A DNA stretch of 64,000 nucleotides, taken from positions 18,947-82,946 of the forward strand of contig JBAXUB010000001.1 of the NCBI GenBank assembly GCA_037129895.1, in the 5' to 3' direction. The notes below the pieces were generated by a model that did no database searches, was not told the DNA's origin, and worked only from the letters and a program-made list of their open reading frames with translations. A program made the translations under genes and the position numbers. Shown here one piece after another: positions 4,529 through 39,513 of this stretch. This DNA comes from Candidatus Tayloriibacteriota bacterium (GTDB taxonomy: Bacteria; Patescibacteriota; Minisyncoccia; Phycocordibacterales; PALSA-1337). Positions within the stretch are counted from its first letter, which is position 1. The number at the start of each line of letters is the position of its first letter.

Positions 4529-5818
4529 CTATATATGAAAATACGACTTGAAGACTTCTGGATCTTTGAATTTACCGATAATGGCCATATTGAGTCCCCT
4601 ATTAACGAAAACTTCATTCGCCAATGCCTTTATATCTTCTGCGGTTACAGAATCCACCTTCTTCATGAATTCCTCCGGCGTATCTATCTTCCTCTTCAAG
4701 ATTTCCTGAAAACCACAATACTCCGCACGTGACTCCGATGTCTCAAGTTCGAGTAATGTAGTGCCGGAAATATAATCCTTGACCTTCTTCAATTCACCGG
4801 CACTGACGAGATCGGTTTTCAATATTTTACATTGATTCAATATCTCCTTTATCGCCTCCTCGACTCTGGCATTATCTACACCCGCCGAGATAGTGAGGTC
4901 TCCATGATCTGTGAACGGATCGTGTGAAGCACGAATGTAATAACATATACCGAGCTCATCTCTCATCTTTGAAAATAATCTCGAACTCATACCCCCGCCG
5001 AGCAGGGTTGTAAGTACGGTCATAGCTGGTATTCTCGGATCATTGATAGAGAACGTTCTCGAAGCAATCACGAGATGTGTTTGATCAGTTTCTTTGAATA
5101 AAGTCTTAATGGCCGGTTCCTCCTGGGACTCGACAACTGGGAGCTTCGGCTTATTAATATCGGTGGCAACAGTCGCGAACATCTTCTCTATTTTGTTGAT
5201 CGTGGCCTTTTCATCGAATGATCCGGAAACCAATACTGTCGTAGCAGAACTCACGTAATGATCCTTCCTATAGCTAACAAAATCAGCACGACCAAAAGAT
5301 TTGATATTATCCTCAGTACCCAAGACACTCCAACCTGCAGGACTATCGCCAAACATAAGCTCCGACAAGACTTCATGAACTCTGCGTTGAGGAAGATCGT
5401 TATACATGCGTACTTCTTCGATGATCACACCTTTCTCTTTGTTTATCTCTGACTCATCGAAAAGCGGATTCATATACATATCTGAGACAATATCCAATAT
5501 TTCATCCAAACGATGTGACGCCGCTTTGGCATAGTAGCCAGTGAATTCTTGAGTGGTAAAAGCGTTGTACTGAGCACCCACTGAATCTAATTCGCGAGAT
5601 ATATCGCTGGCTTTTGGTCTCCTCGGTGTACCCTTGAAAACCATATGCTCCAAGAAATGAGATATGCCATTCTGTTTCTTTGTCTCATATTTCGAGCCAG
5701 CTTCAACCATGACTAATACTGTGACCGAAGGATTCTCAGCCATTGGTACAGTAACGACTCTAAGTCCGCTTTTTAATATTGTTTTATTGAATTTCATATA
5801 TTCTAACAAACTACTCAT
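4529..5818 (-). CDS. M16-family (insulinase/pitrilysin-like) zinc peptidase
   Basis: Inverted zinc motif HFLEHMVF (HxxEH) near the N-terminus; about 430 aa. Confidence 0.8.
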   Translation of the reverse strand: MSSLLEYMKFNKTILKSGLRVVTVPMAENPSVTVLVMVEAGSKYETKKQNGISHFLEHMVFKGTPRRPKASDISRELDSVGAQYNAFTTQEFTGYYAKAASHRLDEILDIVSDMYMNPLFDESEINKEKGVIIEEVRMYNDLPQRRVHEVLSELMFGDSPAGWSVLGTEDNIKSFGRADFVSYRKDHYVSSATTVLVSGSFDEKATINKIEKMFATVATDINKPKLPVVESQEEPAIKTLFKETDQTHLVIASRTFSINDPRIPAMTVLTTLLGGGMSSRLFSKMRDELGICYYIRASHDPFTDHGDLTISAGVDNARVEEAIKEILNQCKILKTDLVSAGELKKVKDYISGTTLLELETSESRAEYCGFQEILKRKIDTPEEFMKKVDSVTAEDIKALANEVFVNRGLNMAIIGKFKDPEVFKSYFHI

Positions 5819-7151
5819 TCCCTATGCCGATTTTTTGCTTCAAATATTTGAGCAGATCAGCTTCGGTAACTCTCTCCTGTTTACCTGAATCACGATCTCG
5901 AACAGTTACACCTGTACCTTTCTCTATAGTCTCAAAGTCAACAGTGACGCAGAGTGGCGTACCGATCTCATCTTGACGACGATAACGTTTTCCTATATTG
6001 CCATTATCATCATAGTCAGTCATCGGTATCTCCTTCTGAATCGTCTTGAATATCTCCTCTGCTTTCTTTATGAGCTCCGGTTTATTCCTTAGCAACGGAA
6101 ATACGGCCACCTTATAAGGTGCTACCCTCGGATGAAGCTTGAGATATGTTCTCTTGTCACCACCTAAGTCATCTTCAGTATATGCATCACAGAGTATAGC
6201 GAGTACTGTCCTATCTAGTCCGAATGATGGCTCTATACAATGTGGTATGAATCTCTCTTTGGTTTCTTCATCATAATAGGAAAGATCAACTTTACTGAAA
6301 TCAGAATGCTGTTTGAGATCGAAATCTCCACGATAGGCCAATCCATATAATTCCTTTTTACCAAAAGGAAAATCAAACTCAAAATCGATAGTTCGTTTCG
6401 AATAGTGTGCACGGTCAGCCTGTGCCACTTCCAACTCGTGGACTTTGGAAGCGTCTAGCCCGACATCGGCCGTGAATGCGAGAACTTCTTTCCTGAAATA
6501 TTCAAATGATGTCTCCCACAGTTTTGGATTGACGAAATACTCTATTTCCATCTGTTCAAACTCGCGAGATCGGAAAAGGAAATCCCTAGGCGCTATCTCA
6601 TTACGGAAAGCCTTTCCTATCTGTGCCATACCAAACGGTAGTCTCGGATGTTGAGTGTCCAATACATTCTTGAAATTCACGAACATTCCCTGTGCAGTCT
6701 CTGGTCGTAGATATGATACCGACGAAGCGTCTTGGATAGCTCCAACATGAGTCTCGAACATCATATTGAACTTCCTCTCTTCACCCAAGTCTCCACCACA
6801 ATCTGGACACTTCTTTTTGTTAGTAGCATCACCTTCTATCTGATCGGCACGAAATCTATGCTTGCATTTCTTGCACTCGACGAGTGGATCAGCGAAGCCT
6901 GATGCGTGACCACTAGCTTGCCAGACTCTCTGATTCATGAGGATGGCTGCATCAACTCGGAACATGTTTCTCTTCCCCACAACGAAGCGGCTGTACCAAG
7001 CATCTTTGATGTTAGATTTCAACGCTTCTCCGAAAGGACCATAGTCCCATGTACCGGCTAAACCGCCATATATCTCTGAACCTTGGAATATAAAACCACG
7101 TCGCTTACAAAGTGCGACTACCGCATCCATTTTGTCTTCTTGTTTATTCAT
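5811..7151 (-). CDS. glyQS: Glycyl-tRNA synthetase, class II alpha2 type
   Basis: N-terminus ...RRGFIFQGSEIYGGLAGTWDYGPFG... is characteristic of dimeric GlyRS. Confidence 0.9.
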   Translation of the reverse strand: MNKQEDKMDAVVALCKRRGFIFQGSEIYGGLAGTWDYGPFGEALKSNIKDAWYSRFVVGKRNMFRVDAAILMNQRVWQASGHASGFADPLVECKKCKHRFRADQIEGDATNKKKCPDCGGDLGEERKFNMMFETHVGAIQDASSVSYLRPETAQGMFVNFKNVLDTQHPRLPFGMAQIGKAFRNEIAPRDFLFRSREFEQMEIEYFVNPKLWETSFEYFRKEVLAFTADVGLDASKVHELEVAQADRAHYSKRTIDFEFDFPFGKKELYGLAYRGDFDLKQHSDFSKVDLSYYDEETKERFIPHCIEPSFGLDRTVLAILCDAYTEDDLGGDKRTYLKLHPRVAPYKVAVFPLLRNKPELIKKAEEIFKTIQKEIPMTDYDDNGNIGKRYRRQDEIGTPLCVTVDFETIEKGTGVTVRDRDSGKQERVTEADLLKYLKQKIGIGNE

Positions 7152-36383: not shown

Positions 36384-36523
36384 ATGTACTCCTTTGAGCT
36401 ACTCTAGGCGCATCCTAGAAAGACTCTAAACTGGGCATTTGCCCGCTGGTTCGAGCTGAAGTGCCAAACCTAGCAGTTTTGAATCTTTATGTATTATACA
36501 CCTCTTATAGTGTATTGTCAAGC

Positions 36524-36598
36524 TGGGTGACTAATGGGATTCGAACCCATACTGCGGCTTTCACAGAGCCGAGTGCTAACCATTACACCATAGCCACC
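36524..36598 (-). tRNA. tRNA-His (GTG) with the extra 5' G
   Basis: GGTGGCTATGGTGTAATGGTTAGCAC-TCGGCTCTGTGAAAGCCG-...TGGGTTCGAATCCCA; anticodon loop CTGTGAA. Confidence 0.9.
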
Positions 36599-36627
36599 AT
36601 ATACCCCAAACCTTTACCTACACCAAA

Positions 36628-37179
36628 CTACTCATAAGTCGGGGACTCCTCATTTATACCAGATTTATGGTTAGTAAGTCGAGCCATGGCATAGAACAAC
36701 GAAGAAAGCCTGTTCATGAACGCCAGTGTCTCCTTACCAACTTTTATCTCCCCCTTCTCCTCTCCCGCCACTATTCTACGCTCTGCCTTGCGTGCCATCG
36801 TACGTGAAATATCTAACATTGCAGCCATCTCTGTGCCACCAGAAACAAAAAACGTTTTTATTGGTGGCATCGCTTTCTCCATAGCATCAATCCATGTTTC
36901 CATCTTTTTGACCTTATTTCCATCGATCGTTTTCTCGGCACCAGCTACTTCTGCTTGGACGATGAATAGGCCATTCTGAGCCCAATCGATCATTTGCTCA
37001 ATTTTCATTCCATCCACTTTCCATCTGAACGATTTTGACCTGACCTTGACCATACCTAGAAAAGAATTGACCTCGTCCAAAGTTCCCAAAGCTTCGGCTG
37101 TCATAGAATTCTTGGACATTCTCTGATCACAACCAAATTTCTTTGTTTTTCCATCATCGCCTTTTCTCGTGTATAACAT
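36628..37179 (-). CDS. ATP:cob(I)alamin adenosyltransferase, PduO type
   Basis: MLYTRKGDDGKT... N-terminus typical of PduO/MMAB. Confidence 0.7.
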   Translation of the reverse strand: MLYTRKGDDGKTKKFGCDQRMSKNSMTAEALGTLDEVNSFLGMVKVRSKSFRWKVDGMKIEQMIDWAQNGLFIVQAEVAGAEKTIDGNKVKKMETWIDAMEKAMPPIKTFFVSGGTEMAAMLDISRTMARKAERRIVAGEEKGEIKVGKETLAFMNRLSSLFYAMARLTNHKSGINEESPTYE

Positions 37180-37180
37180 G

Positions 37181-37265
37181 TGCGCGAGAGAGGACTTGAA
37201 CCTCCAAGCCCATAAGGGCACATCCACCTCAAGGATGCGTGTCTGCCAATTTCACCACTCGCGCG
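37181..37265 (-). tRNA. tRNA-Leu (GAG), class II with long variable arm
   Basis: GCGCGAGTGGTGAAATTGGCAGACACGCATCCTTGAGGTGGATG...GGTTCAAGTCC...CTCGCGCA. Confidence 0.9.
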
Positions 37266-37282
37266 TCTTTTTGTCAACTACA

Positions 37283-37957
37283 TTAACCCTCAAGACTCTT
37301 TAACGTTCTTACTATAGCTAATATAGCTTCAAATTTCAACTTCTTTCTAGTTAAATACAGAATCTCTCCACCCATGTATAAATGAGTCATAATCTTTTCC
37401 GCTTCACTTTTAGCGTATTTTAATTGGAAACATGAACTATTTTTGCTTTTTGTAACATGACCTTTGACGTTGATGCGATTCAACAGTTCCCATCTTATCC
37501 AACTTAGAAACACTGGACTTGCCGAACAAAATCCTAAATACCAAAGGAACGATACTTTCCACCGCCTATCATAATATGAATGTATATAACCATCTCCATC
37601 GAATACACCACGAAGAAAATGAAAGAAGTACTCCGAGGGTATCGCTATCTCTTTTAATACTTTAGACTTCGCAGGGCCAATACCAATCTGAAGTAGGAAC
37701 TTAACAAAATTTACGTCGCCAATTTGGATCCGATAAGTGTGACTGAACTTATAACCACTATAATTGTGACCAATGTTGCTGTGGATATTCAAACATCTCA
37801 TAATGTTTCTTATTTGTTCGAAATCCTTTGAGACAAAAGATACATGCCTCCTATCTCCATATACACACCCATCTGTAACAAATAGTCCGATAGCATATGC
37901 AAAATTTGCTGACCACTCGATTTTTACTTTTCCTTTTGGTTTTGGTCCTCTTTTCAT
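37283..37957 (-). CDS. Free-standing two-motif LAGLIDADG homing endonuclease, directly 5' of tRNA-Leu
   Basis: Motif 1 FAYAIGLFVTDGCV; motif 2 FLRGVFDGDGYI. Confidence 0.85.
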   Translation of the reverse strand: MKRGPKPKGKVKIEWSANFAYAIGLFVTDGCVYGDRRHVSFVSKDFEQIRNIMRCLNIHSNIGHNYSGYKFSHTYRIQIGDVNFVKFLLQIGIGPAKSKVLKEIAIPSEYFFHFLRGVFDGDGYIHSYYDRRWKVSFLWYLGFCSASPVFLSWIRWELLNRINVKGHVTKSKNSSCFQLKYAKSEAEKIMTHLYMGGEILYLTRKKLKFEAILAIVRTLKSLEG

Positions 37958-38062
37958 AATGTTTTGTTAATCAATTATTAACTTTATGTACTCAAAAAAC
38001 AGGCCCTATTGGCTCTGTCTTTTGTTATTATTGAATTTTCTTGTCGTATCGGGAGGAACTTG

Positions 38063-38503
38063 TTATTTCTTCCCCTCTTCTACAGTTTCTTTCTTTTCTT
38101 CTATAACCGGAGCTACACCATCTGTACTAACAACCTTCTCCTCCCTAACCGCCATGATGCGACGCATCTGGTGACGAATCTCCTTGGCAGCCTTCCTGCG
38201 GATGAAGTATAGTTTACCGCGGCGAACCTTAGACCTACGAATAGTCTCTATCTCATCGATCATAGGAGAATACAATGGGAATATGCGCTCTACTCCGACA
38301 CCATCAATAACTTTTCTAACAGTGAAAGTAGCGCCAGCTTGGTGGCCATGTTTGGTAGCCAAAACTAGACCTTCGAATGCCTGAAGACGGAATTTACCCT
38401 TGTCTTCCTCAATCTTCTGCCATACACGAACGAGATCACCTGAACGAATGTCCATTTTCTCGCGTTCAGCTATATTTGCAGTTGTAATTACCTTGGTAGC
38501 CAT
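38063..38503 (-). CDS. rplS: 50S ribosomal protein L19
   Basis: ...FEGLVLA...FTVRKV.DGVGVERIFPLYSP... with a lysine-rich C-terminal tail. Confidence 0.9.
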   Translation of the reverse strand: MATKVITTANIAEREKMDIRSGDLVRVWQKIEEDKGKFRLQAFEGLVLATKHGHQAGATFTVRKVIDGVGVERIFPLYSPMIDEIETIRRSKVRRGKLYFIRRKAAKEIRHQMRRIMAVREEKVVSTDGVAPVIEEKKETVEEGKK

Positions 38504-38518
38504 AGTGGGAATACATTA

Positions 38519-39277
38519 TCACAAGGGCAGCTTTAAATCAAATTTTGAAACCGCTTTCTTGAAATCGGTAGGTAATGGGGCCAAGACTTTGATCTTCTTA
38601 CCTTTTGTATCGGTAAACTCTATAGAATATGAATGCAGGGCCAATCTCTCGAAACCAAGGGCCATAAGTCGTCTCGGTGCGTACAAACTATCACCTACCA
38701 CTGGATGATTGATAGCGCTGAAATGCACACGTATCTGATGAGTCCTGCCCGTCTTTGGTTCTACTTCAACAAGTGAGAACTTCTCATTATCAGTTTCAAA
38801 ATTCACAATACGCGTCCAATAAGTTTGAGCTTCTCTGATCTCCCCTCTCGCTGTTGGGTATGCTGACCACTTTCTAAAATCACTATTACTCCTCCCTATC
38901 GGTCTGTCGATCGTTCCGAACTCTTCTTTCATCTCTCCCCAAACAAAAGCCAGATATTTCTTGGCAATTGTTCTATCTTTGAATTGCTGTTTCAGACTCG
39001 CGTGGCCCGTTTTTGTTTTTGCAATGATGATCACTCCGGAAGTTTCTCTATCCAATCGATGAACTATACCCGCTCTGTTCAATGGATTACCTTCAGAATC
39101 ATTCATCGGATCTCCAACATTCTTGGCCTTTGGATAATTTTCCAATACCCAATCAGCGAGAAATGGCCCCTCGTTCTTGCCATCAGAATGCACCATTAGA
39201 CCGGCTGGTTTACTGACAACCAGACAGTCCTTGTCCTCATATAGGACTTTGATGCTATTTAGCAGTTTCTTGCTCAT
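38519..39277 (-). CDS. RluA-family pseudouridine synthase (start at internal Met MSKKLL)
   Basis: LVVSKPAGLMVH and HRLDRETSGVIIIAKT catalytic Asp motif. Confidence 0.85.
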   Translation of the reverse strand: MSKKLLNSIKVLYEDKDCLVVSKPAGLMVHSDGKNEGPFLADWVLENYPKAKNVGDPMNDSEGNPLNRAGIVHRLDRETSGVIIIAKTKTGHASLKQQFKDRTIAKKYLAFVWGEMKEEFGTIDRPIGRSNSDFRKWSAYPTARGEIREAQTYWTRIVNFETDNEKFSLVEVEPKTGRTHQIRVHFSAINHPVVGDSLYAPRRLMALGFERLALHSYSIEFTDTKGKKIKVLAPLPTDFKKAVSKFDLKLPL

Positions 39278-39385
39278 ATCATGAATATACGCTAATCTAT
39301 TAGCGTATACAAGCGCACTTAGCTGTCTTGGTAGGTAAAGACCAAACCTAGTGGTGCACAGAGTATATTTAAAAACAAAACACAT

Positions 39386-39458
39386 GCGCCCTTAGCTCAG
39401 TTGGTAGAGCGACCCCTTTACACGGGGAAGGTCAGGAGTTCGAATCTCTTAGGGCGCA
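39386..39458 (+). tRNA. tRNA-Val (TAC)
   Basis: GCGCCCTTAGCTCAGTTGGTAGAGC-GACCCCTTTACACGGGG-...GGAGTTCGAATCTCT...AGGGCGCA. Confidence 0.9.
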
Positions 39459-39513
39459 CAATTCTATATTTGTCTGCTATAATTCATAGTACTTATTATA
39501 AGTACCTATAATT

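Follow-up and report, generated by a model that had tools for sequence, protein, structure and literature searches.

The window analysed here is a stretch of 64,000 nucleotides (nt) from the genome of a Candidatus Tayloriibacteriota bacterium (contig JBAXUB010000001.1, positions 18,947 to 82,946 of the forward strand). It carries an open reading frame (ORF) for a LAGLIDADG protein of 224 amino acids (aa) that ends just upstream of the gene for tRNA-Leu(GAG). This ORF is probably a free-standing LAGLIDADG homing endonuclease gene whose probable target is the adjacent tRNA-Leu gene, and which travels with an immune 5′ portion of that tRNA and carries the tRNA promoter within its own coding sequence. 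The family to which it belongs is large and previously undescribed, and consists of genes that are mobile at the tRNA-Leu locus. A preliminary description of the region had proposed intronless homing beside a conserved target. This proposal is supported by the presence, absence, and decay of the gene at one site, its exclusive linkage to tRNA-Leu, its intact catalytic residues, and the replacement of the 5′ part of the tRNA along with the gene. As judged from these sequence comparisons, the protein would cleave DNA and its target would lie within the tRNA gene.

Our first impression of the family, formed from 572 homologues and universal linkage to a tRNA, was that of an essential domesticated gene. 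Because the gene looked like a conserved host gene at that stage, the locus was sampled independently of it by using the rplS gene of the window as the anchor, which yielded 59 metagenome loci whose rplS is 65–89% identical. At least 24 of these loci are empty, with rplS followed by tRNA-Leu(GAG) after ~100–170 nt (~390 nt in one case), and 13 are filled by an endonuclease gene. Three or four copies in this set are decayed: L110 has a frameshift, L114 has a 29-aa deletion and a frameshift, and only residues 1–124 are left in L083/L135. Internal stop codons also occur in two copies (L017 and L038) from the first set of 80 loci introduced below. Among close hosts, filled alleles are interspersed with empty ones. 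For example, filled L117 and empty L118 have flanks that are 94–97% identical over kilobases, filled L136 and empty L106 share 95% identity across 336 aligned nt of the rplS region (96.7% in rplS), and filled L091 and L095 are 88–90% identical to empty L087, with L087 and L091 originating from one metagenome (Ga0182011). This comparison of the same locus in related genomes, which had been suggested by the preliminary description, reveals all three states at one site, even between near-identical genomes, and is consistent with a homing cycle. Because close relatives include filled, empty, and decayed loci, the gene is dispensable and polymorphic, and the many empty sites among close relatives led us to reject the notion of an essential domesticated gene.

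The filled and empty alleles differ by more than the ORF. In the L117/L118 alignment, similarity stops right after the rplS terminator and returns at the T-arm of the tRNA. Over their first ~58 nt, the tRNAs are separated by ~15 substitutions and an indel, whereas the last 27 nt carry no differences. In other words, the filled L117 allele consists of the ORF plus a different version of the 5′ two-thirds of the tRNA. When L095 is compared with L087, the tRNA-Leu genes cannot be aligned, whereas the next tRNA and the flanks do align, and in L136/L106 the rplS terminator once more forms the left boundary. Because similarity between filled and empty alleles breaks after the equivalent hairpin, the rplS hairpin of the window marks the left edge of a variable cassette. 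The pairs L117/L118 and L095/L087 both exhibit co-conversion of flanking sequence with the endonuclease gene.

Most empty sites have in common the D-arm and anticodon-arm sequence GGCGAAATTGGTAGACGCACTACCTTGAGGTGGTAGCGCC, which is referred to here as canonical. This sequence is present with at most one mismatch at 16 of 24 empty sites and in none of 81 endonuclease-linked tRNAs, which have a minimum of two mismatches and typically 8–17. When only the rplS-anchored set is considered, the canonical sequence occurs in 0/9 filled and 16/24 empty loci (Fisher p = 9e-4). Three independent close contrasts have a visible tRNA (L136/L106, L117/L109, and L095/L087), and all of them point in the same direction. 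In the least-changed linked alleles (L024, L082, L006, and L059), the differences are confined to the D-loop and D-stem. The tRNA-Leu of the window carries nine differences from canonical, including a compensatory change from C-G to U-A in the D-stem. Linked tRNAs exhibit 99–100% standard pairing in every stem, and their changes, which are compensatory, cluster in the D- and anticodon stems. For instance, one D-stem pair, canonically C-G, reads U-A in 41 linked tRNAs, C-G in 31, and A-U in nine. This pattern is what would be produced by selection that alters a DNA recognition sequence while keeping the RNA. The resident tRNA allele differs from the empty-site allele and presumably would resist cleavage, and the tRNA-Leu of the window is a probable immune version of the homing target. 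Since co-conversion and target immunity are expected signatures of homing, the replaced tRNA 5′ portion and the never-canonical linked tRNAs both support this reading. The allele patterns also lend indirect support to site-specific double-strand cleavage of a target of ~20 bp, as would be expected of a LAGLIDADG homing endonuclease.

Bacterial tRNA-Leu genes broadly conserve the D-arm sequence AATTGGTAGACGC, which would therefore be well suited as a target for homing. We propose that the enzyme would cut the canonical tRNA-Leu(GAG) gene of an endonuclease-less chromosome between the D-loop and the anticodon arm, and that the break would be repaired from an allele that bears the endonuclease gene. 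Repair would transfer the ORF along with the first two-thirds (5′ side) of the donor tRNA, whose compensatory substitutions keep its function and would make it uncuttable. The right-hand crossover would fall in the conserved T-arm/acceptor end of the tRNA, and the left-hand crossover after the rplS terminator. In most members of the family, the left crossover may instead fall upstream of the ORF, in a conserved copy of the canonical 5′ part that a single added T has disabled (described below).

A word-indexed search identified 572 homologues of the protein, the top 120 of which are all 216–262 aa, 50–64% identical, and aligned over their full length. An exhaustive profile search gave 279 cluster representatives at E ≤ 1e-30, and a scan of one genome per species found a relative in at least 577 genomes, mostly of Paceibacteria within the Candidate Phyla Radiation (CPR). 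For context analysis, we fetched 80 loci from different species (L001–L080). The tRNA-Leu gene is located directly downstream on the same strand in 75 of these (74 GAG and one CAG), and in all 75 informative loci it begins 0–33 nt after the stop codon or overlaps the end of the ORF. Because 75 of 80 loci share this adjacency and the other five contigs end less than 85 nt past the ORF, it is not due to chance. The usual gene order is rluA-rplS-ORF-tRNA-Leu-(tRNA-His/adenosyltransferase). Occurrence in unrelated contexts without a tRNA link, or decayed catalytic residues, had been named beforehand as observations that would speak against homing. Instead, every informative locus of the family is beside tRNA-Leu, and both catalytic-position aspartates of the protein, D29 and D122, are intact. 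Full-text literature searches returned nothing on a free-standing LAGLIDADG gene at tRNA-Leu.

Most of the contigs that carry homologues are only 1–4 kb long. Approximately 21 of the 80 end at tRNA-Leu or within 250 nt beyond it, and approximately five begin just upstream of the ORF. The contig ends at tRNA-Leu are probably assembly breaks caused by strain-level heterogeneity between filled and empty alleles or by shared tRNA k-mers. Such breaks could also be expected if the gene were cargo of a phage or an integrative element with its attachment site in tRNA-Leu. Integration into tRNA genes is common, and the distance from tRNA-Leu to the next conserved gene is variable. However, we find this explanation scarcely credible because the variable segment, which comprises only the ~670-nt ORF and part of the tRNA, contains neither an integrase gene nor any other gene of such an element, and because the ORF is located upstream of the tRNA rather than at its 3′ end. 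Furthermore, no relatives were found among 2.9 million viral contigs, and a phage vector for the gene was rejected on the same grounds. Integrative elements that target tRNA genes are integrase-based, replace the 3′ end of the tRNA, and thereby rebuild the split gene. The present system resembles them in that incoming DNA restores part of a tRNA and an orphan tRNA fragment can be left behind (as in L040). It differs in that there is no integrase, the 5′ end is replaced, and the implied mechanism is break repair.

Protein comparisons support the assignment of the ORF product. Pfam LAGLIDADG_3 matches the protein at E 1.4e-10 (41.7 bits with a cut-off of 22.5) and is the only Pfam match, with no Hint/intein flanks and no helix-turn-helix (HTH) domain, and NCBIfam yields no meaningful match. 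Each of the two LAGLIDADG motifs has an acidic residue at position 8 (D29 and D122), which is the arrangement of single-chain, two-motif enzymes. Both residues are invariant in an alignment of 34 family members and, together with the Pfam match, bear out the earlier description of a 224-aa protein with two intact motifs (GLFVTDGCV and GVFDGDGYI). This alignment has 38 invariant columns, including D29/G30 and G117/D120–G123, and a conserved basic N-terminal arm whose near-invariant residues are R3, G4, P7, K8, G9, K10, V11, I13, and W15. Because a sister family (see below) has an HTH domain at the same position, we infer by analogy that this arm may serve as an extra DNA-contacting arm.

A structure model built with AF2 on the 34 homologues (pLDDT 91.1, pTM 0.88) contains two repeats, each composed of a helix and four strands. 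Its best Foldseek match in PDB is 2dch (E 2.2e-12), with TM scores of 0.63–0.69 to 2dch and I-DmoI. The further matches (I-AniI, I-SceI, I-DmoI, and WhiA, 3hyi and 3hyj) are also all LAGLIDADG proteins, and the model has the pseudo-dimeric alpha-beta-beta-alpha-beta-beta-alpha fold of this group. A sequence search of PDB likewise identified 2dch, the archaeal intron enzyme I-Tsp061I (E 1.3e-5, identity ~20%). I-Tsp061I and I-DmoI are the best sequence and fold matches, and have ~200 aa and two motifs per chain as well. However, they are found in another context with another target, and the family described here additionally has the basic N-terminal arm and a C-terminal helix whose codons also form the probable promoter.

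The archaeal enzyme is intron-encoded, which raises the question of whether the gene is the remnant of an intron-encoded endonuclease. Anticodon loops of patescibacterial tRNA genes can harbour group I introns (PMC13011429), and the tRNA-like element found upstream of the ORF in many relatives corresponds to tRNA positions ~14–43 and ends at the anticodon arm. Nevertheless, we judge this origin very improbable. An Rfam search of the whole window at the gathering score found no rRNA or intron family, and positions 36400–38600 yielded only tRNAs even at E < 1. Because Rfam returned tRNAs only and Pfam returned LAGLIDADG_3 only, an intron, rRNA, or intein context for the endonuclease was rejected. 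The same-strand gap of 18 bp and the lack of such a context, as given in the preliminary description, are confirmed by ARAGORN, Rfam, and Pfam. The gene is located outside any intron or intein with a complete tRNA downstream and thus qualifies as free-standing; the tRNA is uninterrupted and fully paired, and the ORF is not located inside a ribozyme as would be the case for a group I intron. Because a complete tRNA-Leu follows the ORF at every locus, nothing needs to be spliced. Moreover, the introns reported for Patescibacteria reside in tRNA-Asn and tRNA-Asp and are associated with HNH rather than LAGLIDADG endonucleases (PMC13011429).

These tRNA introns, a few of which encode HNH endonucleases (PMC13011429), do resemble the present system in that mobile elements exploit tRNA genes in the same phylum, but here the tRNA is uninterrupted and the endonuclease belongs to another family. 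LAGLIDADG endonucleases of CPR bacteria are encoded in insertions in 16S and 23S rRNA genes and in group I introns (PMC11270868). They share the phylum, the superfamily, and the logic of targeting conserved structural-RNA genes with our family. Those enzymes are located inside rRNA genes, whereas the genes of our family stand alone ahead of an intact tRNA, and no intron RNA was detected.

The last codons of the ORF in the window contain the promoter-like site TTGAAA-17-TATAGT. A matching site is present in most homologous loci, and at empty sites a promoter of this type is located equally far from the tRNA. Codon use in this region is strongly skewed: Leu207 at the −35 position is TTG in 54/57 sequences against a background of 23%, Ile215 at the −10 position is ATA in 42/49 (background 35%), and the Ala before this Ile is GCT in 27/35 (background 29%). 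An invariant Leu five codons upstream of the −35 Leu has roughly background codon use (TTG in 14/85). Codon choice shows that the embedded putative promoter is under constraint at the DNA level, and the site is a probable promoter for tRNA-Leu that is dual-coding within the last ~15 codons. Because of this location, the element would not silence the tRNA or cut it off from its promoter. Read-through from the ORF, followed by release of the tRNA by RNase P, is likely as well. The alternative given in the preliminary description, a domesticated endonuclease co-transcribed with the tRNA, fares poorly since close relatives lack the gene and the tRNA has an apparent promoter of its own, although co-transcription through read-through is possible. 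The spacer between the ORF and the tRNA holds TTGACA at 37272–37277 (minus strand), and TTGACA(AA) is found at −13 to −8 relative to the tRNA in many loci (24/81 filled versus 2/24 empty). This sequence was rejected as the −35 element of the tRNA because it is too near the tRNA 5′ end.

In 60 of the 80 loci, the ORF is preceded by the sequence AATTGGTAGACGCTAnnnnCTTGAGG, which is followed by a TATAAT box 6–9 nt before the ATG. This upstream element corresponds to canonical tRNA-Leu from the D-loop to the anticodon loop (~positions 14–43) with a single T added after GACGC. Apart from this T, the L040 and L112 copies match the canonical sequence exactly, and the L040 element begins at tRNA position +1 and has its own TTGAAA-17-TATAAT promoter and leader. 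The element is nearer to the canonical tRNA than it is to the resident tRNA of the locus. A strict pattern derived for the element has one match per locus and never matches the functional tRNA, and the element is composed of two conserved blocks with four variable bases between them. These three properties indicate that the element is old and maintained by selection. A recent duplication of the resident tRNA was rejected because of the closer resemblance to the canonical sequence, the shared extra T, and the failure of the pattern to match the functional tRNA. We think that the element represents the 5′ half of a tRNA gene that was once invaded. Possible reasons for its retention are that it serves as a promoter source for the ORF, as an uncuttable binding site (operator), or as a left homology arm for homing.

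An operator-like role for this element would also suit a different explanation, namely that the gene is a non-mobile accessory host gene whose product, a LAGLIDADG protein acquired long ago, binds DNA and regulates its own promoter and/or tRNA-Leu transcription, and whose patchy distribution reflects repeated loss only. The element overlaps the −35/spacer region of the ORF in those 60 loci, the tRNA promoter is located inside the ORF, and the rluA-rplS-ORF-tRNA-Leu synteny extends across hundreds of species. DNA resembling the tail of the ORF at empty sites is compatible with deletions. The ORF is under purifying selection, with dN/dS (nonsynonymous over synonymous substitution rates) of 0.05–0.14 in the closest pairs, similar to the 0.03–0.09 of rplS, although these values are approximate because dS is ~1 or more. 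We nevertheless consider this explanation unlikely. Both catalytic aspartates are invariant, and these would not be needed by a pure DNA binder such as WhiA. In addition, the 5′ part of the tRNA is replaced along with the gene in near-identical genomes, the linked tRNAs are never canonical, and close relatives manage without the gene. The ORF is also AT-rich relative to its surroundings, with a GC content of 0.356 compared to 0.425 for the whole window and 0.43–0.45 for flanks and neighbours.

The divergence of the endonuclease likewise appears uncoupled from that of its hosts, with some outlier pairs. Across 39 loci, the Spearman correlation between endonuclease and rplS identity is −0.02, based on pairwise identities only and with endonuclease identities that saturate near 50%. 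Hosts whose rplS is at least 85% identical often carry endonucleases that are 51–57% identical, and the values for the window and L082 are 0.92 for rplS and 0.56 for the endonuclease. In a few pairs, the endonuclease is more similar than rplS (0.72 versus 0.65 for L005/L064). These data fit several endonuclease lineages moving among hosts, with saturation near 50% precluding a firm statement.

In WhiA itself, the catalytic acidic residues have been lost and an HTH is present at the C-terminus. The WhiA/DUF199 group shares its fold with the present family (3hyi and 3hyj), and a DNA-binding regulatory role at the upstream element is conceivable. However, the family retains both aspartates, the protein of the window lacks an HTH, and the gene is dispensable and patchy. 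It does not resemble a WhiA-like domesticated regulator, which would be a core gene with an HTH and lost catalytic residues.

Several observations weigh against the homing explanation. The data consist of metagenome-assembled genomes (MAGs) and metagenome contigs, many of which are short. Individual events may be gains or losses, and the empty sites could be deletion scars. In this regard, empty-site DNA around the promoter still encodes the C-terminal peptide of the family, for example LLSTGKLKVMKILGIVGESL in L124; either the empty sites are such scars or the ORF once extended into a pre-existing (ancestral) promoter. The contrast between canonical and variant tRNAs is partly confounded by phylogeny, as the filled set is broader, and some empty sites (L100, L103, L113, L118, and L122) have non-canonical tRNAs. 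In the window, a consensus scan found no convincing promoter or Shine-Dalgarno sequence for the ORF, and a search allowing up to three mismatches found no upstream element. The sublineage of the window (L081, L082, L085, L091, L095, and L117) also lacks this element, and the left boundary there is the rplS terminator. Lastly, strong purifying selection and occurrence in at least 577 species could reflect a benefit to the host, with dS near saturation and dN/dS not computable for more distant pairs.

Distant relatives of ~300 aa with an N-terminal HTH (HTH_24/AsnC type) form a sister family that belongs to Rokubacteria where the organism is named. In all seven informative loci (L141, L142, L144, L145, L147, L148, and L149), the gene is located 8–34 nt upstream of tRNA-Leu(CAA) or overlaps its start, on the same strand. 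The D-arms of these tRNAs are varied. Five P0190-like loci (L141, L144, L145, L148, and L149) contain a (T)GTA(C/T)A(A/T)T box that is encoded by a conserved C-terminal GW(L/V)YNV or equivalent. This box, which reads TGTACAAT or nearly so in these five of the seven, resembles an extended −10 element. The tRNA-Leu(CAA) gene is usually followed by tRNA-Ala(GGC). Because the sister family is also found at a tRNA-Leu gene, the tie to tRNA-Leu is older than the Paceibacteria family. It is not universal across the superfamily, since a more distant homologue with a double HTH, P0230, is located on a short contig where no tRNA gene adjoins it.

A bolder version of the homing explanation, which we offer tentatively as a possibility, is that these genes constitute a new kind of self-contained homing cassette flanked by tRNA sequences. 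Such a cassette would comprise the disabled 5′ half of the target, the ORF, the tRNA promoter in its last codons, and the immune tRNA, with the tRNA-derived ends acting as portable homology arms. The upstream copy might then also be an autoregulatory operator. If so, the cassette could move between distant bacteria into any tRNA-Leu gene (GAG, CAG, and CAA isoacceptors are seen), and across whole phyla a long arms race would have diversified an essential tRNA in its D- and anticodon stems.

The free-standing Seg and Mob endonucleases of T-even phages, which belong to the GIY-YIG or HNH families, carry out intronless homing, and SegB is located in the T4 tRNA gene cluster. By analogy, these may be the closest counterparts in mechanism. 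In both systems, the gene is located outside any intron or intein and beside its presumed target, the resident allele differs, and flanking markers are co-converted. However, the present family consists of single-chain LAGLIDADG proteins encoded in bacterial chromosomes, and viral contigs yielded no relatives. Its genes are also bound to a single tRNA species, contain the tRNA promoter within the ORF, and in most members are preceded by a disabled copy of the target.

Homing endonucleases of bacterial chromosomes are known mainly from introns and inteins, and in CPR bacteria from rRNA introns. The present analysis documents a stand-alone LAGLIDADG family devoted to tRNA-Leu in at least 577 species, with a sister family in another phylum. 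Public data hold natural before-and-after alleles, which makes homing, co-conversion, and target immunity directly testable. The compensatory stem changes suggest that a selfish nuclease is shaping the sequence of an essential tRNA, and the ORF offers an example of a gene that carries its neighbour's promoter in its own codons. The proteins are also compact (~220 aa) meganuclease scaffolds with a guessable and highly conserved target. For annotators, the findings account for a gene that is repeatedly met as hypothetical or LAGLIDADG, and for the way in which contigs of CPR assemblies often break here.

Features of the endonuclease locus, in coordinates of the window.
Feature	Coordinates	Strand	Basis
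Cob(I)alamin adenosyltransferase gene	36628..37179	-	Pfam Cob_adeno_trans E 4e-43; part of right-hand homology
tRNA-Leu(GAG), endonuclease-linked non-canonical allele	37180..37264	-	ARAGORN; Rfam; allele comparison
18-nt spacer, from endonuclease stop codon (37283) to tRNA 5′ end (37264)	37265..37282	-	sequence
Free-standing single-chain LAGLIDADG homing endonuclease gene (probable), 224 aa, ATG start	37283..37957	-	ORF list, Pfam, PDB, AF2, Foldseek
Promoter-like site TTGAAA-17-TATAGT in last ORF codons (L207-K208 ... A214-I215-V216)	37311..37339	-	consensus scan, 10/12
LAGLIDADG motif 2 LRGVFDGDG, catalytic-position Asp122	37589..37615	-	translation; G117 D120 G121 D122 G123 invariant
LAGLIDADG motif 1 AIGLFVTDG, catalytic-position Asp29	37868..37894	-	translation; D29, G30 invariant (34-member alignment)
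Conserved basic N-terminal arm MKRGPKPKGKVKIEW, predicted disordered	37913..37957	-	alignment; low pLDDT residues 1-10
rplS terminator hairpin and U-run	37993..38024	-	fold -16.1 kcal/mol, z -5.3
rplS (ribosomal protein L19), conserved upstream neighbour	38063..38503	-	Pfam Ribosomal_L19; synteny

Within the window, a pseudouridine synthase gene and rplS are located upstream of the ORF, and an identical endonuclease protein is annotated in a Candidatus Taylorbacteria MAG. The rplS hairpin is bulged and was missed by a terminator scan, and folding confirmed it. Rfam assigns tRNA-Leu(GAG) a score of 48.3 bits against a gathering score of 29 only with permissive filters, and a scan of the whole window with default filters missed this tRNA. 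The ATG of the adenosyltransferase gene begins at the base directly after the 3′ end of the tRNA, which has no encoded CCA. Processing of the tRNA 3′ end would leave an essentially leaderless adenosyltransferase mRNA. The spacing between the tRNA and the next gene ranges from ~15 nt to more than 2 kb in relatives.

Among the rplS-anchored loci, L083/L135 (region 4550–6614) have ~1.6 kb between the truncated endonuclease copy and tRNA-Leu, which may be a secondary insertion or a rearrangement. In four others (L090, L096, L097, and L115), a tRNA-Leu(GAG) that is canonical or has at most one mismatch is present on the opposite strand downstream of rplS, at a distance of 112–290 nt in L096, L097, and L115 and ~3.4 kb in L090, which suggests local inversions. 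The window contains seven tRNA genes, singly scattered among protein genes. One of these, tRNA-Val(TAC) at 39385–39459 on the plus strand, abuts the longest possible start of the divergent pseudouridine synthase ORF.

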